DNA of 63,184 nt, the filler included, from Stramenopiles sp. TOSAG23-2 (taxonomy: Eukaryota), in assembly GCA_900128395.1 (NCBI GenBank). It is 9 parts of 9 records of this genome, joined end to end, with 100 filler letters (N's around TTAATTAATTAA, not from the genome) between each part and the next. Parts side by side here need not be neighbours in the genome. Positions count along the whole stretch, not along the records: positions 1 to 25,870 come from LT649445.1; 8 more parts are not named here. One strand, 5' to 3'. The notes under the pieces were generated by a model. The model was not told the origin of the DNA and made no database searches. It worked only from the letters and a program-made list of their open reading frames with translations. The translations under genes and the position numbers were made by a program. This document shows positions 1-15,904 of the stretch, piece after piece (position 1 is the first letter of the stretch; each line of letters begins with the position of its first letter).

Positions 1-114
1 TTATTAGTACTATATACACGCAGATAGAACCGCAATCATTTATATATTACCTACCCATATAGGTATTATCATCATCATCATCATCTTCTTCTAATAATAA
101 TAATAATAATAAAT

Positions 115-3100
115 ATGTCTAACTTACATGCAACTCCAGGTTTTGAAGTATTAGCCAGTGAAAAACAAGAACTTACAGATAGGACAAGAGTATACCTTCA
201 ACGAAGAGTAAAAGAAACAGATGAAATTCCGCTTACACTGAAAGAGGAAAATGAGTTAGTGGGACAAGCTAGAAAAGAAAAGCTCGGGGAATGGCTTGCA
301 ACTGGTATATGTGGAAATAATATTACATCTTCAGCATTATATGTTGTTGCGCTATGCTCCGTACCCGCTGGTAAATTTGCCCCTGTTGCACTATTATGTA
401 TTGCCGGTTTGCTATATTTATTCCGCCGGATATACGAGGAGGTTGTAACAGCACTGCCAGTCAACGGCGGTACATACAATCTATTATTAAATACAACGAC
501 AAAAGGAAATGCTAGTATTGCTGCATGTTTAACTATGTTGTCATATGTTACAACTGCTGTGATATCCTCGACATCAGCTATGCGTTATTTGCATACTTTA
601 TGTGATAACTGTGAAGAGTTTGATGTAATCTTTGCAACTTGTGTAACATTATCAATAGCGGCATTTTTGAATTTAATGGGTATTACGGAAAGTGCTGTGG
701 TAGCTTTAGTTATTTTTTTGTTCCATATGTTATCCATGGTTTTGTTAGTAGGTGCATGCCTTATAAAAGCTATTGTAGATATGCCAACAGTTGATTTACT
801 TGCTGGTACATCAACTTTAGCAGCAACTGCAGTTTCTCCTGCAAGTTTGACTACGCCAATAACATTCCCATATAATTTTTCATCTAATACACAATGTACA
901 TGTTATAATGATACGGCGTTAAGTACGGCGACTGCAGAAGCTGCTTCTCAATCAGTTGACACGGTGTCAATGTTTATTTATAATTGGGTACATACATCAC
1001 CAGCCATGGGAATTGCGGGGGCAATTTATTTCGGTTTTTCAAGTGCCTTGCTCGGTATATCTGGATTTGAAAGTTCCTCCAACTATGTTGAAAATCAACA
1101 AGATGGCGTGTTTCCTAAAACGTTACGTAATATGTGGATTGCTGTTACTTTTATTAATCCATCCATAGCATTTTTAGCTCAATGTTTATTGCCAGTGAAT
1201 GATATAGCAGGGCAAGCAGAGGAAGGAGCGTTGTTATCGATTATGGCAGAGAAAGCTGCTGGCCCATGGTTAAAATATTGGATTGTAATTGACGCTACGT
1301 TAGTTTTAGTGGGTGCGGTTATCACTGCTTTTGTCGGCTTCACTGGCCTTAGCCATCGGATGACAGTAGATAGATGCTTACCACAAGTATTTTTAAGTAT
1401 CAACTCCTTTCGCAAAACACGACATTGGATTATTATAGGATTTTGGATTTTAACAACTTTGCTTGTATTGCAAACTCAAGGCAATGTCGAAATTCTTGCT
1501 GGCGTTTACACAGTAGCATTTTTGTCAGTAATGTTTAGTTTTACTGTTGGAAATATGCTTTTGAAACTGCGTAGGGCTGATTTGCCAACACCTGTCCATG
1601 TAAAATGGAGAATAGTACTTCTTGCATCGTTTGCAGTAATGCTAGGTTTGATTGGAAATATCGTATCGCGACCACGTAGTCTATCGCCATTGTTAATATT
1701 TGGTGTATGTTTTATTATACCGGTCCAAATTATGTTAAATCGGCGAAAGGTGTTGAGCATCATCGTAGCAATCACTAGTGACGTGGAAGATCGCGATGAT
1801 AAGAATAAAAAATTAGATCAAGCAACGAAACGGATAGCGGAAAAACTGGAGTTAGATGATTTGTTTATGGAAGCTATGAAAAATGCATCGGATCTAATGA
1901 ATGCCGATCGTGCAACTTTATGGTTAATTGATCATGTGAATAATGAATTGTGGAGTAAAGTGGCCCTTGGCATTCCCACAATACGGGTTCCACTTGGGGT
2001 TGGTATCGTTGGTTGGGTTACTACGCATAAAAAAACGCTTAATATTCCTGATGCATATAAAGATTCTAGATTTAATCCTGCTGTTGATAAAAAAACTGGT
2101 TACAAAACGGATACCATCCTATGCATGCCAATATATAATTCAAGTGGAACGATGGTTGGTGTCATGCAAATTATAAATAAATTAGGCAAAAATGCTATTT
2201 TTACAAAGGAGGATGAAATTGTTTTGACTGATTTTTGCACAAGGATTGCCGTTGCAGCGGAGAAGGTCCAAGAGTTAGGTACTACGCAAAAAGATATGAA
2301 GCGAATTTTAAAACGATTAAGAAAGCAATTGGAATCAACCAAAGCAATTGAAACAATGTTGAAAAGTGCAAGTGTACAATCGCAATTGGATCATTTATTT
2401 GTTGAAGCAATAAAAGTTGCGCATACATTATTAAGTGCAGACCGTGGGACCTTGTGGTTAGTGGATGATCGTACAAATGAACTATGGACACGGATAGCGG
2501 AAGGTATGGATCCAATACGAATACCAAAATCAAAGGGTTTGGTAGGATGGGTTGCAACAACGGGGGATAGCTTAAATATTGAAGATGCATATAAAGATCC
2601 AAGATTCAACAATGCAGTAGATAAAAAAACAGGATATAAAACTACACAAATTTTATGTTCGCCAATCGTGTCTAGCACAAGTGGAAAAGTTATTGGTGTT
2701 GTACAATTGATTAATAAAGTTGTAAATGAATCGCATAGTAATCTTGGATCCCCTGATGGATCTCCAAGGGGGACTGAAAACTTGGAGCAATCCTTATCAG
2801 AGTTCGACGATGCTTCCATCATACATTTTACTAAATCCGATGAGCAAGTGTTAGATAATTTTTGTAAAAGCATTGCTGAAACTATTGAATTATCACAAAA
2901 GTCGGATACGACGAGAGAGGAAATGCGCCAAACAGTGCGCAATCTTGAGAAGCAATTGGCTCTTGTCGAATCAAAAATGGTAACTTCGTACGATGATTTG
3001 TTTCAAAACACTGTTGAAAGCGCACGTAAAATTTTGCAAGCAGACCGCTGTACACTATGGATCGCTGATAGTGATAAAAAAGAGTTATGGTCTATAATTG

Positions 3101-4554
3101 CACAAGGGATGGCACCTATCCGAGTACCAAACGACAAAGGGATAGTAGGTGCATGTTTTCATACAAGTAATTGTATATCGATTCCAGATGCGTACCAAGA
3201 TCATCGCTTTAATTCTACCGTGGATAAAAAGACAGGCTATAAAACAAAATCAATCTTATGCGCACCGATATTTAATGGTGAGAAGGTTATTGGTATTTTA
3301 CAATCAATTAATAAAGTTTCTCAATATTCAGATACATTTACAAAAGATGATCAAATTGCTGCAAAGACGTATTGTACACATTTAGCAAAAGCTGTTATCC
3401 ATTGTCAAAGAAAAGAATCTGGTAAAGAAGAATTGTTAGAAAGTAGTATGGAAATTAAAAAGTTTACTTTAAACGTAGCGGCTAATTTGGCCGAGCTCAA
3501 GATAGAAGAAAGCCAGCCGAAGAAACCGACATTAAGAGGTCTTGCAAGATTTAAAAATGTAGCAAAGAAAGTTGCAGAAGTTAAAAAAGAAGAAAAACGG
3601 ATACAGGAAAAACGACGAACTTCTGTTACGCAAAAATTGCGTTTGCAATTGAAAGAGGAAAGGGAGGAATACGATGCGACGCACAAAAATGATTTGGGCG
3701 ATGGCAAAAAAGGGAGATCAACATGTTATAACTTCATGCTTTTAAAACGAGTCATTAATAATTGGGCAAATCGTTCCCTAATTGCTCTTACACAAAAACC
3801 ACTTGTTTATTTTACAAAAGATGATTCGCCAAAGGCATTGGCAAATGCTGTTAGATATGTTCTTGCAAATGAACAGAGATGTTGGATTAAATTTGTTCGA
3901 GTATATGCAAAAAAAGCAGATGTCCCAGTTAAAGTTCCAATTGTATATCAGTATTTGTTGGATTCAAATCCAAATTTAATTATAGAATACGTAGCGATGG
4001 TAGGCAAGTTTGGCCCTGGTATTGTTCGTGAATTATCTCTTCGAGAGCATATTCCTTCTACGTTTATGTTTATGGGGTCGTTTGGAGAGAAATTTGAATA
4101 TACATTCACAGAAATGGGTGGTTTGCGTTTGATCACTGAGAATACGGCGACATATTATCAGCCTACTGCTGTGAAAAGCAAAGCTGCTGCAGCTGCAAAA
4201 ATTCAGTCTATTTTTAGAAGAAACAAAGTGAAGAAACGGTTCTCTGCATTAAATGACCATTCAAGGCCTAAATCGCCAAGGTCGAACTCTCCTCCACTTG
4301 ATAAAATGTTCAAAGAAACCCTGTCTATCAAAAAAGTTGGCGATGATTTAAATAATAATAATAATGACGACGATGATGATGATGTTATTAAAGCACTATC
4401 GCAAAATTCGTTTCATGGAACGTTCGCAGGACCAAGAGAATCTTTTCAAGTACTAAATAAACGTACTTCTTTCACAACGGATGATGTGGTTTTAGAAATG
4501 GCGCGAACTTCATCTAACGATCATAAAAAGAAGGATAGAAAAATGTCTGATTGA
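115..4554 (+). CDS. APC-superfamily (amino acid permease / KimA-YdaO-like) transporter fused to three tandem GAF domains, a C-terminal cytosolic alpha/beta domain and an IQ-like motif
   Basis: About 12 hydrophobic segments in the first 540 aa with motifs ATGICGNNITSSALY, LPVNGGTY and SGFESSSN. Three repeats of ADRxTLW...G(I/L)VG...I(P/E)DAY.D.RFN..VDKKTGYKT..ILC.PI...INK...FTK.D(E/Q) at about 1850-2270, 2385-2900 and 2990-3405. IQ-like AAAKIQSIFRRNKVKK near 4190-4240. Confidence 0.9.
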   Translation: MSNLHATPGFEVLASEKQELTDRTRVYLQRRVKETDEIPLTLKEENELVGQARKEKLGEWLATGICGNNITSSALYVVALCSVPAGKFAPVALLCIAGLLYLFRRIYEEVVTALPVNGGTYNLLLNTTTKGNASIAACLTMLSYVTTAVISSTSAMRYLHTLCDNCEEFDVIFATCVTLSIAAFLNLMGITESAVVALVIFLFHMLSMVLLVGACLIKAIVDMPTVDLLAGTSTLAATAVSPASLTTPITFPYNFSSNTQCTCYNDTALSTATAEAASQSVDTVSMFIYNWVHTSPAMGIAGAIYFGFSSALLGISGFESSSNYVENQQDGVFPKTLRNMWIAVTFINPSIAFLAQCLLPVNDIAGQAEEGALLSIMAEKAAGPWLKYWIVIDATLVLVGAVITAFVGFTGLSHRMTVDRCLPQVFLSINSFRKTRHWIIIGFWILTTLLVLQTQGNVEILAGVYTVAFLSVMFSFTVGNMLLKLRRADLPTPVHVKWRIVLLASFAVMLGLIGNIVSRPRSLSPLLIFGVCFIIPVQIMLNRRKVLSIIVAITSDVEDRDDKNKKLDQATKRIAEKLELDDLFMEAMKNASDLMNADRATLWLIDHVNNELWSKVALGIPTIRVPLGVGIVGWVTTHKKTLNIPDAYKDSRFNPAVDKKTGYKTDTILCMPIYNSSGTMVGVMQIINKLGKNAIFTKEDEIVLTDFCTRIAVAAEKVQELGTTQKDMKRILKRLRKQLESTKAIETMLKSASVQSQLDHLFVEAIKVAHTLLSADRGTLWLVDDRTNELWTRIAEGMDPIRIPKSKGLVGWVATTGDSLNIEDAYKDPRFNNAVDKKTGYKTTQILCSPIVSSTSGKVIGVVQLINKVVNESHSNLGSPDGSPRGTENLEQSLSEFDDASIIHFTKSDEQVLDNFCKSIAETIELSQKSDTTREEMRQTVRNLEKQLALVESKMVTSYDDLFQNTVESARKILQADRCTLWIADSDKKELWSIIAQGMAPIRVPNDKGIVGACFHTSNCISIPDAYQDHRFNSTVDKKTGYKTKSILCAPIFNGEKVIGILQSINKVSQYSDTFTKDDQIAAKTYCTHLAKAVIHCQRKESGKEELLESSMEIKKFTLNVAANLAELKIEESQPKKPTLRGLARFKNVAKKVAEVKKEEKRIQEKRRTSVTQKLRLQLKEEREEYDATHKNDLGDGKKGRSTCYNFMLLKRVINNWANRSLIALTQKPLVYFTKDDSPKALANAVRYVLANEQRCWIKFVRVYAKKADVPVKVPIVYQYLLDSNPNLIIEYVAMVGKFGPGIVRELSLREHIPSTFMFMGSFGEKFEYTFTEMGGLRLITENTATYYQPTAVKSKAAAAAKIQSIFRRNKVKKRFSALNDHSRPKSPRSNSPPLDKMFKETLSIKKVGDDLNNNNNDDDDDDVIKALSQNSFHGTFAGPRESFQVLNKRTSFTTDDVVLEMARTSSNDHKKKDRKMSD

Positions 4555-4841
4555 GAAAAAAGTTTTTTTAGGTGCATCATTTTTGGTAATATTTTAATTT
4601 TAAATTTTGTAAAAATTACGCGTACTTCGTATGTATATCATAGAGAAAAAGCATCAATGATATGTTTTACTCGTTCTACACACACAAACACACCACACAT
4701 AGACACACACATATCATTACCAAAATTTTAATATATTATATATGATTATATGCATAATATTATTATACCGAAGTACGATTATAAAAAAAAATACGTCGTA
4801 TATTACGAATTTTTTTATAAATGCATGTACGCTTCGTACCT

Positions 4842-5117
4842 CTATTTAAATCGATTTGATTTGTTGCGAAGTGCTTCGATTCTGTTCTCTTCTTTAATTC
4901 TAGTTTTCCATAAGACATCATGATTAACTGCATGATCAGCACTACTTCCGTAATAGAATTTCTGTTGAGAAAATTGGTCTTTTTTATCATAGCAATTATT
5001 TTTACCAAATCTTGCGCTTATCATTTTTGGACCTACTAAAGGATTAATATCTGGACCAAAATTTACTGGTAAGACATATTCTCCAGGACCAGGTGTCCAA
5101 CTTTTTCCATGTAGCAT
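4842..5117 (-). CDS. Small protein with a PGPGxY (SHIPPO/STPG-type, ciliary microtubule-associated) motif; may be 5'-truncated
   Basis: TPGPGEY motif; ATG at 5117 (MLHGKSW); AT-rich 3' region downstream of the stop. Confidence 0.5.
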   Translation of the reverse strand: MLHGKSWTPGPGEYVLPVNFGPDINPLVGPKMISARFGKNNCYDKKDQFSQQKFYYGSSADHAVNHDVLWKTRIKEENRIEALRNKSNRFK

Positions 5118-9120: not shown

Positions 9121-12100
9121 TTAACAAAAATTATATGCACCATACAATATCTTTTCACGTTTTGATTTTATTTTACGATTATCTTTGAAAATAGTTTCTG
9201 GTAATGCTACTGGTTTATTTTTTTGCTTAAATGGTTTACCTACACTCCAATTAATCTTCCACATCTGTTTCATTAAATTTCTTTGTTCTATTGCCTCATC
9301 AATAATTTCATTTTTATTACTTCTGTTTTGTTTCATTGTTTCAAGTTTTGCTAAATTTTGCTCGGGTACTTCTACAGGTGAATCCATCAAGTCCATTGAC
9401 CCATCCTTATCTTTTTCTATTAATTTAAATTTAACTTTACGTGGAGATGGATGATTCATATTCTTCGATCGATTTTTATTATCTTTTGGCATTGTCACAA
9501 TATTATTATTTACTGCTGGTTTAGCATTTGAATCTAATGTGCTATTAAACATTTTCTTACCGATATGCCCAATATTAGTAGCACTATCGTCATTATTTTT
9601 ATTAACATTCTCTTCTCTCTTTTGAATTTTGAAGGAACCGCTTAATGATATATTTCCAGCATCATTTAGATCAGTCCGTGTGTGAACTTTTGTCATTGCA
9701 TTATGTAATCGCTTACGTTGCATATCTTCAAACGCACTCGGTATAGGCTTTGCACGATGCTTACGAATTGAATCCTCTACTATATCTTTAATAATACGTG
9801 GTGATGAAGGCCGCCCAGGATTTTTTTCATAACCTAACATGATTTCATCAACAACATTTTTTAAAGATTCTGTATCGCACATTGTACGCAAGATGTCTGT
9901 CCTGCGACAAAAGTATGCATTTTCCGTTATTGTCGATCTCCATGCATTTCTAGTTACATAGTCTTCTTCAAAACAGTGCAATATGCGTTTCGGTAATCGC
10001 CGCAATATATAATATGGCATAATCAAAACTTTAACTTTAGTTTTTGCAACGTAGGATTCTACTTCTACAGAGTCAGGAGCAGAAACATTTGCAGGATTAA
10101 TAATATTGTTATTTTCTAAAAGTTGGCTTGATTTATCCTCTTCTTCTTGATTGACATCAAGAGATTTTGTTGTATTTGCAACGACGCTTTGAATAGGATT
10201 TTTACTATTACTAGTATCTCTGGGTTTATCAGGCGAAGATGGTACATTATTAGTATTTTCAAGTGTATCTTCACCATTGCCTTTTTTCAATAAACGAGTA
10301 GGGGATTCAACAATTTTTTCGCCCCCACCATTTAACATTGATTTAACTGCAGATATGCCAAACCATTGTGCTTTGCCAATGGTAGAAATATGTGCCAGAT
10401 AGTCATCGACAATATTTTGATATTTGCTCTTAATTACTACGGTTCGTTTAATATTTATTTGCCCGGATAAAATAACATATACAGAATCTAGTTGGTTACC
10501 AACTAGATTAAATACATGACCTGGCATGTATGTATGTGTTGAACATTTGTTTACATTGTCTAATAAAACGTTTGCTTCAACGTCGATAAACGGGGTTACA
10601 TTTGCTTTTAAAAAATCAACTAATTCCATTATTTCATATGTGCGGTTACTATTTACTACAGAATCTTCCTTTATACCTTCATATGATGTTCGATGTATTT
10701 CGATTAAATGCGTTTTTCCCCTTGCGCATGCAGTGAATTTACGACCAGTACTAGAGGATAAAGCCAATACGCCAAATATATCCCCTTCTACATATATTTT
10801 GTGAACATTTCCATACTCATCTATTTCGTCTATGGAACCATGTAGTATTAAATATGCATTACCATTATTCAATTCTTCTTCACGATTATATAAAATTACA
10901 TCTTTACCAAGACTAGTATAATACAAATGTTTATAGAAATTGTTATTATGTTTAAACCTATGTAATTGTTTTGGCCATACTACTGTTCTTAATAATAATT
11001 TCAAAAAATGAAGCTGTACTTCATTTCTATCAAAAGGAATTGTTTTCAATATTCTTTTCGTAACCTTTTCAAATGTATGCAAAGCTTTTTGACTATCGTT
11101 CCACCTGACATGTCGTAATAATTGTTTCATGGGATCTAAATGCCTCGGATTGTCTAATAAATAGTGCATTAATGATTTATACAAAGAGACAGGTCCATCT
11201 TGTCCTTTTTTTTTTCCTACTAGTGATAATTGACCGACATTGTGCAATACGTGGTTTATATGTCCTTTACGTTTCATCTTTAAATGATATAAATATGCCC
11301 TTGATCGCCTTACAAAAAGTGGGTAAAAATCTGAACCTAAACATGATTTTAAATCTGATAATGTCACCCATACACACATAGCAGTTGTACTTATTGTTTC
11401 TAATGTATGATTCCAGTGGTTTTCGTATTGATGATGAGGAGGAGGATGCTGATTAGCGCTACCATCGTTATGTTCAGACGTTTCGCCACTATTTATACCA
11501 CTATTATTCTCATCAATTAGACATTTAATGCCATACATATCCCCTAATGAGGAAATTGTTTCACCATGGTGGATTTCTTTCACTTCTCCTTCTATGACAC
11601 ATATCATATATTTTTGCACAGTTCCTCTTTCTGCTACCAAGTCTCCCTTCGAATAAATCGCTGGATGCATTATATCTCTTAAATGTGATAAAACAAGCGG
11701 AGGCAATTGATTAAATGCCGGATGTCTTTCAAAAATTTTTTCTGACTCTAAAAATTGTCTACATCTCATAACTGTATTTACAGGGAATAAACATGCGAAT
11801 GCTTCTTTATGAAGCATATAACAAGAACAATTGTTAGACGCTGCTATAACACTTGCTGTTCGTGGACTGCTTGCCAATAATGCATATTCGCCAAAATAAC
11901 TAGGTGGTTCTAAAGTTCGAATAAATGTTGGCTTTGGTGATTCATCAGACATTTGTTTATAAATATTCACCTTTCCAGATTTCAATATATACATAACCTC
12001 TCCAAGTTCTCCTTCCCTTATTATTACATCTTTATCATTAAATTTTATTTCTGTAAAACTATCAGCTATTCTATTTAAATTATCTTTTGATAGAGCTTGA

Positions 12101-12213
12101 AACAATGGTACTTTGATTATAAGTTCAATAGATTTTTCTTTCAAAAATAGTTTTTTCTCTTCTGCCCATTTATTTGGATTAGTAGTAGTAACGAAAGTAC
12201 TGGAAGACGCCAT
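9121..12213 (-). CDS. Protein with about four cyclic-nucleotide-binding (CNB) domains and no catalytic domain recognised
   Basis: Canonical CNB1: IIREGELGEVMYILKSGKV...FGEYALLASSPRTASV. Further CNB-like blocks at YSKGDLVAERG, YLILHGSI...GDIFGVLAL and VYVILSGQI...WFGI. Confidence 0.85.
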   Translation of the reverse strand: MASSSTFVTTTNPNKWAEEKKLFLKEKSIELIIKVPLFQALSKDNLNRIADSFTEIKFNDKDVIIREGELGEVMYILKSGKVNIYKQMSDESPKPTFIRTLEPPSYFGEYALLASSPRTASVIAASNNCSCYMLHKEAFACLFPVNTVMRCRQFLESEKIFERHPAFNQLPPLVLSHLRDIMHPAIYSKGDLVAERGTVQKYMICVIEGEVKEIHHGETISSLGDMYGIKCLIDENNSGINSGETSEHNDGSANQHPPPHHQYENHWNHTLETISTTAMCVWVTLSDLKSCLGSDFYPLFVRRSRAYLYHLKMKRKGHINHVLHNVGQLSLVGKKKGQDGPVSLYKSLMHYLLDNPRHLDPMKQLLRHVRWNDSQKALHTFEKVTKRILKTIPFDRNEVQLHFLKLLLRTVVWPKQLHRFKHNNNFYKHLYYTSLGKDVILYNREEELNNGNAYLILHGSIDEIDEYGNVHKIYVEGDIFGVLALSSSTGRKFTACARGKTHLIEIHRTSYEGIKEDSVVNSNRTYEIMELVDFLKANVTPFIDVEANVLLDNVNKCSTHTYMPGHVFNLVGNQLDSVYVILSGQINIKRTVVIKSKYQNIVDDYLAHISTIGKAQWFGISAVKSMLNGGGEKIVESPTRLLKKGNGEDTLENTNNVPSSPDKPRDTSNSKNPIQSVVANTTKSLDVNQEEEDKSSQLLENNNIINPANVSAPDSVEVESYVAKTKVKVLIMPYYILRRLPKRILHCFEEDYVTRNAWRSTITENAYFCRRTDILRTMCDTESLKNVVDEIMLGYEKNPGRPSSPRIIKDIVEDSIRKHRAKPIPSAFEDMQRKRLHNAMTKVHTRTDLNDAGNISLSGSFKIQKREENVNKNNDDSATNIGHIGKKMFNSTLDSNAKPAVNNNIVTMPKDNKNRSKNMNHPSPRKVKFKLIEKDKDGSMDLMDSPVEVPEQNLAKLETMKQNRSNKNEIIDEAIEQRNLMKQMWKINWSVGKPFKQKNKPVALPETIFKDNRKIKSKREKILYGAYNFC

Positions 12214-13423: not shown

Positions 13424-15904
13424 ATGAAGAATATTATATTAATAATCATAAGTAACATTATTATTATTTCCACCTGCTGTTCAATATTATTAGTCTTTGC
13501 ATCAACAAAAGATACGAATAATGATGTAAATATATTTCCTATCAATACATGGTTGAAACCAAATATTTACTATGGTACAAAAACAGAAAGTTCTATACCA
13601 TTAACAACCGGTTTAATGTGGTTCACAGGGGATAAAATTGACTTTTTAAGACATGATGCAAGGCAGGAGGATCGTTTAAAACGTTGGGGATGGATTGAAC
13701 ATAATGGCAATGATTATGGTAAAGAAAAATTAATTGATGATAAAAATAATATTAAATTAGAAATATCACATATAAAAAATGATATGACAATTATTAATGT
13801 TACCAGTAAAAATAAAAAAAAGTTAGAGGAAAATTGTTCGATAATATTCTATGTATGGGACGAATCGAATAGTGGTAAATTAAGTGTAAACACAAAAGGT
13901 GGAGACAATACGACATATATTAATGGTGAACATGGGGAACATGGTAAATATCGATTTAAACTTTTTCATCACCTTCTTTCTCCATCATCATCGGAAAAAA
14001 AGAAAGAAGCAAATACATTTTATGAAGGTAGATATGTAAAATCAACAAGTGATTTATGGAAATTAAAGGATGACTGGGTACGACCAAGCTTAAGAAATAA
14101 TTACATGGAACAACAAGAAACATTAAATAAAAGCAACAAGAGAAAAAAGAACAAGAAAAAGAAAAAGAAGAAAAAAAATAAGATGAAAAAATATCCAAAT
14201 GTCATACCAAAATTATCTAATCATATTTATAGTTTTGGAGGAAACAATGTGGAGAAAACTAATATTATAGCTGTACAAAAAGTAATTACTACACCATTTA
14301 TTTTAAATATTCAAACCATATATAATAGTGAAAATGGTGAGTATAACAGCGATGATGAAATGAATATGGAAAATAACGATGTTGCAAAATCAAGAATTTT
14401 AGATAAATTTGAAAGTTATTCCAATCAATTTTCACAAACATTTCAAAAGATATTTAATTTCAATAATGAATATACAAATAATATTAAATATACTAATTTT
14501 GCAAAAGCAGCATTTAGCAATTTAATTGGAAGTGTCACGCACTTTCATGGAAGTTCATTAATAAAACATCCACGTGATGACGAAGAGCCAACACTAAGTA
14601 AAGAAGGACCGTTGATTACCGGTGTACCCTCTCGTTCATTTTTTCCACGTGGTTTTTTATGGGATGAAGGTTTTCATCAATTATTAATTGTTGAATGGGA
14701 TCCAATTTTAACTATGAAAGTATTAAAACATTGGTTTCATCGAATGGATGATAAAGGGTGGATACCAAGGGAACAAATATTAGGCGACGAAGCGTTAAGT
14801 AAAGTACCAAAACAATTTCAAATACAATCCCCTGATGTTGCAAACCCTCCTGCATTGTTATTATCCATTGAGCGATTGGTTGAAATTGCAAATAGTAGTA
14901 TGAACAAGAAGATGACGAAAATGGAAAAAGAGATTCATTCTGATGGGATGGATGATAATAGTAATAATATAGTCGAAAATACATTATATAACAATGTATA
15001 TGAATTTTTAAATGATATTAAGCCATATTTAATAAAATGGTATAAATGGCTTAAAAGTACACAAAGTGGACCGTCATATGGTACATTTCGTTGGCGGGGG
15101 CGTACAAAAACACATACATTAAGTAGTGGGCTGGATGATTATCCTCGTGGCATGTATCCTTCCGATGATGATAAACATGTAGATTTATTATCATGGATGG
15201 CATATAGTGCTGGGACATTAAAACGATTGTTTGAACTGTTGAATAAATACGATGGGTCAATGGAGGATAATAATACAGAAGAACATGAAGAAAATTTGAA
15301 ATATATTGAATTATATAAAAACGACAATGAGCTGTATCTGAAAAATTTACAACAACATTGGGACATTGATACAAACTTATTTTATGATATTGGGGTAAAT
15401 GGTTTAATTTATGATGAAAACACTGGAAGGCCTATTAGTTATGATGAACCAAAATTGGTAAAACATTATGGATATGTGTCAATTTTTCCGCTAGCATTAC
15501 GATTATTAGAAGCAACTGATGAAAGGTTAGGCTTTTTAATTGATAACATTCGTGATGAAAACCTTGGATTATGGAGTAAATATGGCTTACGTTCATTATC
15601 TAAAAATGATAATTTATTTGGTAAAGAAGAAAATTATTGGCGTGGAAAAATATGGATTAATATTAATTTTTTAACATTGAAAGCTTTGCATAAATATAGC
15701 ATGATGAAAGGTCCATACCAAACAAAAGCAAAGTTGGTTTATGATGAATTACGTACAAATGTGATAAATAATATTTATCAACAATATCGTAAAGGTGGTT
15801 TTATATATGAAAATTATAATAGTGAAAATGGACGTGGTGCTGGGTGTCACCCATTTACAGGTTGGAGTTCATTAGTTGTTTTAATTATGGGTGAGAGGTA
15901 TTAA
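13424..15904 (+). CDS. MOGS: Mannosyl-oligosaccharide glucosidase (ER glucosidase I, GH63)
   Basis: N-terminal hydrophobic anchor; VPSRSFFPRGFLWDEGFH, GWIPREQILG, SGLDDYPR, YWRGKIWININFL, HPFTGWS. Confidence 0.97.
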   Translation: MKNIILIIISNIIIISTCCSILLVFASTKDTNNDVNIFPINTWLKPNIYYGTKTESSIPLTTGLMWFTGDKIDFLRHDARQEDRLKRWGWIEHNGNDYGKEKLIDDKNNIKLEISHIKNDMTIINVTSKNKKKLEENCSIIFYVWDESNSGKLSVNTKGGDNTTYINGEHGEHGKYRFKLFHHLLSPSSSEKKKEANTFYEGRYVKSTSDLWKLKDDWVRPSLRNNYMEQQETLNKSNKRKKNKKKKKKKKNKMKKYPNVIPKLSNHIYSFGGNNVEKTNIIAVQKVITTPFILNIQTIYNSENGEYNSDDEMNMENNDVAKSRILDKFESYSNQFSQTFQKIFNFNNEYTNNIKYTNFAKAAFSNLIGSVTHFHGSSLIKHPRDDEEPTLSKEGPLITGVPSRSFFPRGFLWDEGFHQLLIVEWDPILTMKVLKHWFHRMDDKGWIPREQILGDEALSKVPKQFQIQSPDVANPPALLLSIERLVEIANSSMNKKMTKMEKEIHSDGMDDNSNNIVENTLYNNVYEFLNDIKPYLIKWYKWLKSTQSGPSYGTFRWRGRTKTHTLSSGLDDYPRGMYPSDDDKHVDLLSWMAYSAGTLKRLFELLNKYDGSMEDNNTEEHEENLKYIELYKNDNELYLKNLQQHWDIDTNLFYDIGVNGLIYDENTGRPISYDEPKLVKHYGYVSIFPLALRLLEATDERLGFLIDNIRDENLGLWSKYGLRSLSKNDNLFGKEENYWRGKIWININFLTLKALHKYSMMKGPYQTKAKLVYDELRTNVINNIYQQYRKGGFIYENYNSENGRGAGCHPFTGWSSLVVLIMGERY

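Follow-up and report, generated by a model that had tools for sequence, protein, structure and literature searches.

A candidate cNMP-regulated APC-superfamily transporter with a GAF triplet between permease and C-terminal domain in an uncultured marine stramenopile

Gene and domain architecture

The window, that is, the whole stretch of DNA that was analysed (63,184 nucleotides, comprising nine parts of Stramenopiles sp. TOSAG23-2 assembly GCA_900128395.1 joined end to end with filler), carries near its start, on LT649445.1, a gene for an APC-superfamily permease in which three GAF domains stand between the membrane domain and a conserved C-terminal domain (CTD). Its features are as follows.

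115..4554, + strand: whole gene, a single ORF of 1479 aa, stop codon within the coordinates
115..282, + strand: N-terminal cytosolic segment, residues 1-56, preceding the Pfam permease match; 45-86% identity to orthologues
283..1758, + strand: APC-superfamily permease, residues 57-548, from Pfam, hydropathy and the KimA match
Predicted TM1-TM6 (hydropathy): residues 65-81, 87-103, 134-150, 171-187, 195-211, 299-315
Predicted TM7-TM12 (hydropathy): residues 342-358, 390-406, 438-454, 460-476, 500-516, 525-541
304..321, + strand: TM1 unwound-region motif GICGNN, residues 64-69, with N69 at the position of KimA D36 (profile alignment to 6s3k)
748..1008, + strand: long TM5-TM6 loop, residues 212-298, predicted extracellular
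1060..1077, + strand: TM6 motif SGFESS, residues 316-321, with E319 at the position of KimA E233, which serves in proton coupling
1846..2259, + strand: GAF1, residues 578-715, full NKFDE; most conserved GAF, 64-93% identity to orthologues
2371..2889, + strand: GAF2, residues 753-925, NKFDE with a 28-residue insert between NK and F
2971..3399, + strand: GAF3, residues 953-1095, NKFDQ; least conserved GAF, 32-80% identity to orthologues
3400..3792, + strand: K/E-rich linker, residues 1096-1226, poorly conserved (20-74% identity)
3793..4140, + strand: conserved CTD, residues 1227-1342, 116 aa, common to all GAF-less relatives
4201..4242, + strand: IQ-like string IQSIFRRNKVKKRF, residues 1363-1376, in a poorly conserved tail

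An earlier, sequence-only reading of this DNA had claimed one uninterrupted ORF encoding a 12-TM APC permease, three GAFs with NKFDE, NKFDE and NKFDQ motifs, and a C-terminal block beginning LVYFTKDD, and this architecture was borne out. The ORF begins at an ATG and is closed at its 5' end, Pfam AA_permease_2 matches residues 57-512 (E 5.7e-42), and a hydropathy scan gives 12 peaks over residues 65-541, with two weaker extra peaks in the TM5-TM6 loop. Pfam GAF matches three stretches (E 1.4e-52; best stretch 960-1094), the motifs are exactly as read, and the C-terminal block is present as the CTD.

The gene is real and expressed, and belongs to the nuclear genome of an uncultured marine eukaryote. 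Contigs from RNA libraries align over 123-4619 with zero joints, a single 2804-nt contig spans 1642-4445 with two letters differing, and the TM12-GAF1 junction, for which the sequence-only reading had proposed seeking read or transcript support, is bridged without joints by contigs in three of the four RNA libraries examined (X2, X3 and X6). Since RNA libraries may contain DNA, these contigs are firmer evidence of presence and continuity than of transcription. All or part of the stretch is contained in 20 of 21 listed runs (13 of the 20 recorded as RNA; 11 studies), and the protein's cluster at 90% identity counts 41 sequences, many of them from contigs 4.6-5.0 kb long. Orthologues P0002-P0005 are full-length, 50-85% identical, share the domain order and align end to end; the permease (69-94% identity), GAF1 and the CTD are the best-conserved parts, the permease most strongly so.

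Insertion of the GAF domains

Comparison with GAF-less relatives supports the earlier claim that the GAFs were inserted into a protein that ancestrally consisted of a permease and a cytosolic domain. Such relatives, all uncharacterised, include eukaryotic proteins of ~700-790 aa, among them Thecamonas trahens AMSG_05865 and EukProt transcripts, and bacterial proteins of ~615 aa annotated 'APC family permease', found in at least 597 bacterial species genomes (Acidobacteriota, Myxococcota, Gemmatimonadota, Planctomycetota and others). Their permeases are 43-59% identical to that of the window protein and they carry the same CTD with the same invariant residues, but the CTD directly follows TM12, the gap being ~35-70 residues as opposed to ~680 in the window protein. 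The eukaryotic relatives share the TM1 GNN motif and group with the window protein in a single clade, whereas the bacterial ones have Asp at the N69 position. In the permease tree the GAF-bearing rows are one clade (support 100), nested within a 14-row clade (support 100) that also holds GAF-less eukaryote-type rows. The ancestral form, which is widespread in bacteria and also occurs in some eukaryotes, consists of 12 TM helices and a small CTD, and in one eukaryotic lineage three PDE/CyaB2-type GAFs and a long flexible linker came to lie between them.

The CTD itself (LVYFTKDD...GGLRLIT) is 60-97% identical to that of four orthologues, the best-conserved region outside the permease, and an alignment of 42 sequences shows invariant F, Y, N-E, F-x-P, S, M-F, G and R. 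It matches no Pfam family and has no significant PDB sequence match, and its alternating sequence pattern suggests an alpha/beta domain. The linker before it carries a basic-basic-x-S/T site, KRRT(S), at 1166-1170, which reads KKRTS, KRRNS and RTRNS in P0002-P0004. Control by Ca/calmodulin, which the sequence-only reading had proposed from the IQ-like string, was not supported: Pfam IQ gives 14 bits against a cut-off of 20.3, 18% of shuffled versions of the protein contain one or more matches to a relaxed IQ pattern, and the string is kept in P0002 and P0003 and absent from P0004-P0006.

The GAF domains as putative cyclic nucleotide sensors

The identification of the GAFs as PDE/CyaB2 (cNMP) type is supported by several lines of comparison. 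Their best PDB matches are the GAFs of CyaB2, PDE5, PDE2 and PDE10, with GAF1 matching 1ykd at E 8.5e-46, 4mcw at 7.2e-29 and PDE5 at 1.3e-26. According to an excerpt of PMC4411481, most characterised cNMP-binding GAFs retain NKFDE, and the cAMP contacts of CyaB2 GAF-B are R291, T293, I308 and D356; in each of the three GAFs here the matching positions hold R, T, I/V and D. In GAF1 (motif N688 K689 ... F696 ... D700 E701) the equivalents R599, T601, V616 and D658 are kept in six of six aligned sequences, V616 being I in one. GAF2 (N867 K868 ... F905 ... D909 E910; R777, T779, I794, D836) is 41-80% identical to its orthologues, with the motif's E changed to L in P0004 and P0005, and the contact equivalents of GAF3 (N1066 K1067 ... 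F1075 ... D1079 Q1080; R978, T980, I995, D1037) vary in P0003-P0005. Like the window protein, Anabaena CyaB2 (1ykd) and mammalian PDE2/5/6/10 combine Pfam GAF, NKFDE, equivalents of the CyaB2 GAF-B contacts and helix-like inter-GAF linkers; unlike it, they have two GAFs rather than three, placed ahead of the catalytic domain of a cyclase or phosphodiesterase instead of between a membrane domain and a CTD. In the GAF tree GAF1 forms one clade across orthologues (support 93), with GAF2 and GAF3 grouping less cleanly, and this grouping of each GAF position suggests that the triple GAF is older than the split of the orthologues.

We give roughly even chances to the reading that this APC (LeuT-fold) superfamily protein with its inserted GAF triplet is a cNMP-regulated secondary transporter. 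In the mechanism that we infer, cAMP or cGMP would bind mainly to GAF1, the one GAF whose NKFDE motif and pocket are conserved throughout, and binding would shift the conformation of a helically linked GAF rod, as in GAF-regulated phosphodiesterases and cyclases. This change would then alter the way in which the CTD and TM12 extension act on the permease from its cytosolic side, so that transport is turned on or off.

Perhaps, though we would not bet on it, the GAF module is instead a dimerisation or spacer scaffold, or binds some other small ligand or ion, any regulation being independent of cNMP. NKFDE alone is not proof of cNMP binding and some PDE GAFs serve dimerisation only; moreover, GAF2 and GAF3 lose the NKFDE E or pocket residues in P0003-P0005, and four of the nine nearest non-family GAF proteins have GAFs only, with no recognisable output domain (the others being three PDEase_I proteins, one with HD and cNMP_binding, and one histidine kinase). 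GAF domains in general bind many ligands, as an excerpt of PMC4411481 notes. Against this, NKFDE and the equivalents of the CyaB2 cAMP contacts (Arg, Thr, Ile/Val and Asp) are intact in GAF1 of all aligned orthologues, and its best matches (E 1e-23 to 1e-46) were solved with cAMP or cGMP.

The permease and its possible substrate

The solved structure closest to the permease is KimA of Bacillus subtilis (PDB 6s3k, 8b70, 8b71), a c-di-AMP-inhibited K+/H+ symporter of the KUP family, matched at E 8.6e-5 with the single sequence and at E 1.4e-11 (47 bits) with the family profile. KimA likewise joins a LeuT-fold domain of 12 TM helices to a small cytosolic domain behind it, through which a nucleotide second messenger regulates the protein; an excerpt of PMC10284832 describes inhibition by c-di-AMP on this domain, which touches a loop of the TM domain. 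The earlier label 'KimA-like' is borne out in part, the similarity being remote: profile and PDB sequence comparisons detect no sequence similarity between the CTD and the KimA cytosolic domain, N69 and S143 replace the TM1 and TM3 Asp residues of KimA, and the sensor is three GAFs with cAMP or cGMP as presumed ligand where KimA uses c-di-AMP.

It is tempting to see in the protein a KimA/KUP-type K+/H+ symporter under cNMP control, serving potassium or osmotic homeostasis, yet we consider this unlikely. The match to KimA extends to individual residues (Y76, T147, S151, S316, E319 and Y465 for KimA Y43, T121, S125, T230, E233 and Y377), bacterial relatives retain the TM1 Asp, Na+/H+ exchanger genes adjoin a bacterial homologue at four of 48 loci, and carboxylate-free K+ sites are known in APC-fold NKCC1, as described in part of bioRxiv 10.1101/2021.11.11.468215. 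However, KimA D36A/N abolishes K+ uptake (PMC6994465), and the study in which AtHAK5 D72A likewise abolishes uptake reports that Kup D23 is essential too; with N69 in place of this Asp, the permease might not transport in the fashion of KimA. Loss of the TM3 acidic residue and the low profile score also speak against K+ symport, as does the finding of neither a ydaO-type c-di-AMP riboswitch nor any other Rfam element near 19 bacterial homologues. 

Under our main reading, because the Tyr/Thr/Ser/Tyr residues of KimA and the proton-coupling Glu are kept while the KUP-type TM1 and TM3 carboxylates are absent, we would guess that the protein couples protons to the movement of a cation or of a small polar solute.

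Still less probable, in our estimate, is a transceptor, in which transport has been lost, the permease senses an extracellular solute, and the GAF-CTD part relays or integrates the signal. A motif scan of 180 proteins found D at the TM1 position in 107, N in 45 and no match in 28, and N, the change that kills transport in KimA, is fixed in every eukaryote-type member. The TM5-TM6 loop, predicted from LeuT-fold topology to lie outside the cell, is large and conserved, with invariant C261, C263 and N265 and N-x-S/T sequons, and is mostly missing from the bacterial relatives compared; its invariant Cys pair would suit a sensor. On the other hand, N69 also occurs in GAF-less eukaryotic relatives and so is not tied to GAF insertion, domain searches found no catalytic or known output domain, and the permease, proton-coupling Glu included, is the most strongly conserved part of the protein.

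That the gene is an assembly chimera, or a read-through of neighbouring permease and GAF-protein genes, is so improbable as to be effectively refuted already: apart from the metagenome-type nature of the assembly we found nothing in its favour, and the domain E-values, a single frame without a stop, three independent RNA-library runs bridging the junction, the same architecture in separately assembled orthologues and in EukProt, and a permease-family CTD downstream of the GAFs all argue against chance or artefact.

A rare design

The literature searched gave no description of a permease + GAF + CTD protein, in keeping with the sequence-only reading, which knew no characterised transporter of this kind; three cNMP-type GAFs between pore and CTD are a rare and apparently undescribed design. 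On our reading, cAMP or cGMP would switch the passage of solute through such a GAF-bearing permease. A parallel in animals is SLC9C1, the sperm Na+/H+ exchanger, a secondary transporter that contains its own cyclic-nucleotide-binding domain (CNBD) as sensor; SLC9C1 differs in its CPA transporter fold, in using a CNBD rather than GAFs, and in having a voltage-sensor domain. As a side observation, counted for cNMP signalling in the organism, a gene with a cNMP_binding domain lies 4.5 kb downstream.

Gene and domain organization

The open reading frame at 115..4554 on the + strand, with 1479 codons, an ATG start and an in-frame stop upstream within the window, encodes the window protein. Pfam places AA_permease_2 on residues 57-512 (144.6 bits, cut-off 27, E 5.7e-42) and GAF on three stretches (E 1.4e-52). 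The 12 peaks seen in a rough hydropathy scan, all within residues 65-541, fit the approximately 12 TM helices of the APC superfamily. The layout proposed by the sequence-only reading is thus borne out: a single frame carries the permease, three GAF domains and a C-terminal block at residues 1227-1342, and NKFDE-type strings occur where that reading had placed them, full in GAF1 and GAF2 and ending in DQ in GAF3. The sole NCBIfam match of the protein was to the GAF part of PtsP, far under the cut-off, and Rfam had no match in the window.

Features of the window protein
Window 748-1008, residues 212-298: TM5-TM6 loop of about 85 residues, with an invariant C-x-C-x-N (C261, C263, N265) and N-x-S/T sequons
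29 residues: link between TM12 and GAF1
Residues 688-701: GAF1 NKFDE string
Residues 867-910: GAF2 NKFDE string, with an insert
Residues 1066-1080: GAF3 string ending in DQ (NKFDQ)
130 residues: K/E-rich, poorly conserved tether between GAF3 and the C-terminal domain (CTD)
Window 3610-3624, residues 1166-1170: KRRTS in the tether, kept as KKRTS, KRRNS and RTRNS in the orthologues P0002-P0004
Residues 1227-1342: C-terminal block, LVYFTKDD...GGLRLIT

To judge by its sequence, the TM5-TM6 loop, which is mostly absent in bacterial relatives, is probably glycosylated, disulfide-bonded and extracellular. The KRRTS string resembles a PKA/PKG-type kinase site (basic-basic-x-S/T). Calmodulin control through an IQ motif, as the earlier reading had also proposed, was rejected: the IQ score is below the Pfam threshold (14 bits against 20.3), the motif is kept in only two of the orthologues, P0002 and P0003, and a relaxed IQ pattern arises in 18% of shuffles of the window protein.

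Continuity of the gene and support from RNA libraries

The joining of a permease to GAF domains raises the question of an assembly chimera, which is effectively ruled out by three kinds of evidence: RNA-library contigs that bridge the joint, a 90% cluster of the window protein with 41 members, many of them on contigs of 4.6-5.0 kb, and four full-length proteins with identical domain order (P0002-P0005, at 85, 59, 53 and 50% identity, P0005 being from EukProt). The stretch is present, whole or in part, in 20 of the 21 public runs listed. Thirteen of the runs that contain it are labelled RNA; they come from 11 studies, are all of the marine or seawater metatranscriptome type, and in several cases are polyA-selected.

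Contigs from four RNA libraries (X2, X3, X4 and X6) were aligned to window positions 1-5000, taking the junction as the end of TM12 (~1758) and the start of GAF1 (~1846). The sequence-only reading had named reads or transcripts over this junction as a check, and contigs from three of the four libraries bridge it. In X2, a single 2804-nt contig with two differing letters spans 1642-4445, while the crossing contigs of X3 and X6 cover 1676-1886 and 1702-1973, respectively. The junction is uncovered among the X4 contigs listed (48 further pieces), which is not evidence of absence. No joints are reported in the RNA contigs, and nothing in them therefore points to an intron or to two transcripts, with the proviso that RNA libraries may contain DNA and that contigs cannot reveal transcript ends.

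N/D-rich low-complexity codons at ~4350-4385 (window 4343-4509) draw many unrelated RNA contigs and many loose ends. X2 has a depth spike of 239.6 at 4343-4509, where depth is uninformative about the gene.

The GAF domains resemble those that bind cyclic nucleotides

The top solved matches of the window protein are the CyaB2 GAF tandem (1ykd, E 4.6e-42) and the GAF domains of PDE5, PDE2, PDE10 and PDE6. GAF1 alone, compared with the PDB, likewise finds 1ykd (8.5e-46), the GAF of an HD-phosphohydrolase (4mcw, 7.2e-29) and PDE5 (1.3e-26). Nine of the nearest GAF proteins outside the family were scanned: three carry PDEase_I, one HD plus cNMP_binding and one a histidine kinase, and four show GAF only. 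CyaB2 GAF-B is reported to hold cAMP through R291, T293, I308/T309, D356 and N359, and on its own to bind both cAMP and cGMP (PMC4411481). In the alignment of GAF1 to the PDB (chain-index offset 57), these contacts lie within the strings DRxTLW, ELWxx[IV] and DxxTGYxT.

Equivalents of the CyaB2 GAF-B contacts R291/T293/I308/D356 in the window protein
GAF1: R599/T601/V616/D658
GAF2: R777/T779/I794/D836
GAF3: R978/T980/I995/D1037

The N359 position is Thr in the window protein, as it is in the aligned PDE5 and 4mcw. The features of cNMP-type GAFs (cNMP, cAMP or cGMP) found in the sequence are, in sum, the GAF family model, NKFDE and the CyaB2 GAF-B contact residues. Because GAF1 is the only one to keep NKFDE in every orthologue, it is predicted to be the likely ligand site.

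Identity of the window protein to P0002-P0005, by part
Permease: 69-94%
GAF1: 64-93%
GAF2: 41-80%
GAF3: 32-80%
CTD: 60-97%
Linkers and tail: 15-97%, mostly <45% outside P0002

Two near GAF relatives from outside the window are themselves rich in GAF domains: P0181 (2051 aa) has six GAF stretches as its only domains, and P0186 (2922 aa) has seven, together with three PDEase_I stretches.

The permease matches KimA remotely and lacks two of its acidic residues

Apart from GAF structures, the window protein has one solved match, KimA (6s3k), and a remote one (E 8.6e-5). When a 26-sequence profile of GAF-less relatives was used, KimA was again best (E 1.4e-11, 47 bits), ahead of xCT (29 bits) and ApcT (26 bits), with an alignment that spans TM1-TM10 and then stops. 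By sequence comparison, the relation of the window permease to KimA appears real but is remote, and the permease is a separate family. Residues were mapped through the profile alignment.

KimA residues with their reported roles (PMC6994465) and the aligned residues of the window protein
Y43, external gate, no uptake in Y43A: Y76
T121, contacts K+: T147
S125, close to the K+ site: S151
T230, thin gate: S316
E233, couples protons, no uptake in E233A/Q: E319
Y377, contacts K+: Y465
D36, binds K+, D36A/N abolish uptake: N69
D117, contacts K+ in the cytoplasmic tunnel, dispensable in KimA: S143

E319, Y76, T147 and Y465 are invariant in the orthologues. The TM1 Asp of KimA and KUP is missing, being N69 in the window protein and N in all six aligned family members; the TM3 acidic residue is missing as well, being S143, a Ser invariant across the whole family. 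The Asp equivalent to D36 is reported to be essential in Kup (D23), and D72A to inactivate AtHAK5; the equivalents of D117 (Kup E116, AtHAK5 D201) are described as essential in both (PMC8133630). Thus, the earlier description of the permease as 'KimA-like' holds for its layout and for its nearest solved structure, but not for membership of KimA/KUP, two of whose defining residues are replaced.

A motif scan of the D36 position in 180 proteins found D in 107 and N in 45, with 28 giving no pattern match (GAF-only proteins or fragments). Every N belongs to a GAF-bearing protein or to a GAF-less one of eukaryote type. The TM1 motif (window 304-321, residues 64-69; read in the relatives P0019-P0138) is accordingly CGND in bacterial relatives and CGNN in all eukaryote-type proteins, with or without GAFs. 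In the eukaryotic clade, the key carboxylate changed before the GAF domains arrived. The bacterial relatives, which have D at this position, may well be KimA-like cation transporters. For the window permease itself, K+ is still a possible substrate by analogy, because the APC-fold transporter NKCC1 is reported to have K+ sites without carboxylates (bioRxiv 10.1101/2021.11.11.468215).

GAF domains were inserted into an existing permease

Of 8000 candidates scored as shorter relatives of the permease, 5888 matched. The nearest GAF-less proteins are of two kinds. The first, of ~700-790 aa and 55-59% identity, includes two EukProt transcripts and Thecamonas trahens AMSG_05865; the second consists of bacterial 'APC family permease' proteins of ~615 aa and 43-50% identity. 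Bacterial relatives occur in at least 597 species genomes (597 of at least 600 pattern matches, with one genome per prokaryote species), and the main phyla among the matches listed are Acidobacteriota, Myxococcota, Gemmatimonadota and Planctomycetota. Eight GAF-less relatives were read, one of which (P0019) ends after TM12; in all seven complete ones the CTD directly follows TM12. Their common CTD signature is VxFF[ST]xxD, Y..L.NE, G.F.P, MF and GG[LV]R.

A permease tree was built from 60 rows and 430 columns by quick IQ-TREE, with SH-aLRT support. All six GAF-bearing rows fall into a single clade (support 100), which is nested in a 14-row clade (support 100) whose remaining members are GAF-less and eukaryote-type, with the bacterial rows on the opposite side. 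The labels 'eukaryote-type' and 'bacterial' follow the source name for P0025, P0095, P0087 and the named bacterial records, and clade membership plus length for the other sequences; P0095, from EukProt, groups with bacteria. In a tree of single GAF domains, each position groups across the orthologues, GAF1 as one clade (support 93) and GAF2 and GAF3 less cleanly, which suggests that the triple GAF arose before the orthologues split. The GAF-only fragment P0183 groups in this tree with the GAF2 and GAF3 of the family.

The proposal that GAF domains were inserted into a pre-existing permease-plus-cytosolic-domain protein is therefore well supported, both by the position of the CTD in GAF-less relatives and by the trees, and the insertion probably happened once. 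Together, these comparisons establish the architecture, the history of its insertion and the pattern of its conservation.

The C-terminal domain

The cytosolic domain of KimA has a five-stranded parallel sheet and four helices, and lies domain-swapped beneath the membrane domain of its partner. When bound there, c-di-AMP is reported to touch a membrane-domain loop and to trap an inward-occluded state (PMC10284832). The CTD of the GAF-less relatives occupies the same place, after TM12. An alignment of 42 CTD sequences has eleven invariant positions. The sequence of the window CTD, read by eye, alternates five hydrophobic strand-like with four amphipathic helix-like segments. We hypothesize that the window CTD is homologous to the KimA cytosolic domain. 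Against the PDB, a single CTD sequence found nothing below E 0.45, and the best match of the 42-sequence profile was an unrelated recombinase domain (E 0.032), with KimA not matched. Four CTD-bearing sequences without the GAF part matched no Pfam family in the CTD at E up to 10. The bacterial permease family, which is very large and wholly uncharacterised, carries this conserved domain, for which Pfam has no model.

Rarity, proposed mechanism and significance

Residues 290-1479 were scanned against 1.84 billion representative proteins, giving 17,149 matches at E <= 0.001, and domains were parsed in 326 proteins, including the best 150 of these matches. Among these 326, GAF together with the permease or CTD was seen only in this family and in four fragments (P0185, P0193, P0210 and P0232). 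A literature search, whose scope lay outside subscription journals and supplements, found no transporter with GAF-domain control and no account of a permease-GAF-CTD design. The statement of the sequence-only reading that it knew of no characterised transporter with such an architecture therefore stands, as far as this literature and the best 150 of 17,149 matches extend.

Nucleotide messengers govern transporters through other modules: c-di-AMP acts on KimA, Kup and Opu, and CNBDs act on channels and on SLC9C1. We class the window protein among the transporters with a built-in nucleotide-messenger sensor, and regard gating of its permease by cNMP as plausible. The protein would be dimeric, as KimA and GAF tandems are, and cNMP bound at GAF1 would change the GAF rod. 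The 29-residue link joins this rod to TM12, and the 130-residue K/E-rich tether joins it to the CTD. The tether would allow the CTD to reach back to the membrane domain. A change in the rod may then alter the hold of the CTD and the TM12 extension on the cytosolic face of the permease, thereby gating transport.

A bolder proposal, which we advance tentatively and with less than even confidence, is that this is the first known secondary transporter with GAF-based cNMP gating. Here, a KimA-related, bacterial-type scaffold of permease plus regulatory domain would have been rewired to cAMP/cGMP by the insertion of a PDE-type triple GAF between pore and clamp domain, with GAF1 as the ligand switch and the tether giving the CTD room to fold back against the permease. 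If the GAFs do gate transport, they would represent a new regulatory solution, with a bacterial scaffold for regulation adapted to the cAMP/cGMP signalling of eukaryotes, and would link that signalling to nutrient or ion uptake in an uncultured marine protist lineage frequent in RNA libraries. Because several marine surveys have the protein in their RNA libraries, solute uptake under cNMP control could serve as a routine physiological switch in an abundant, uncultured protist group. Such a protein would also offer a compact natural part for cNMP-switchable transport, perhaps made light-switchable with light-activated cyclases.

Neighbouring genes

Outside the GAF-permease gene, the window is ordinary nuclear DNA of a eukaryote, and its long ORFs include a myosin (a 1792-aa uninterrupted ORF), a GH63 glucosidase, a Pcf11-like protein and armadillo repeats.

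Genes near the GAF-permease
Window 9121-12213, - strand: cNMP_binding gene, 1030 aa, with an N-terminal cNMP_binding domain on residues 56-140 (E 1.3e-29)
Window 13424-15904, + strand: GH63 glucosidase, an 826-aa uninterrupted ORF

For the GH63 protein, identity to the best named relatives is only 33-37%, these being spread over Amoebozoa, fungi and animals, and marine assemblies reach up to 69%; with named relatives so distant, the lineage is one without a close named relative in the collection. The cNMP_binding gene, 4.5 kb downstream of the GAF-permease, has no other Pfam match and is a second cyclic-nucleotide sensor gene. Without proving anything about the window protein, this gene and the KRRT site at residue 1166 are consistent with active cNMP signalling in the organism.

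Around the bacterial homologues, no c-di-AMP riboswitch or other Rfam family was found in 19 loci (146,608 bases), and no conserved neighbour in 48 loci (95 ORFs scanned, plus 3 over-long ORFs), many of the neighbour ORFs being crude longest-ORF calls in GC-rich DNA. As a weak hint, genes for Na+/H+ antiporters or exchangers adjoin the homologue in four of the 48 loci (L044, L050, L059 and L062), and at L062 they flank it on both sides.
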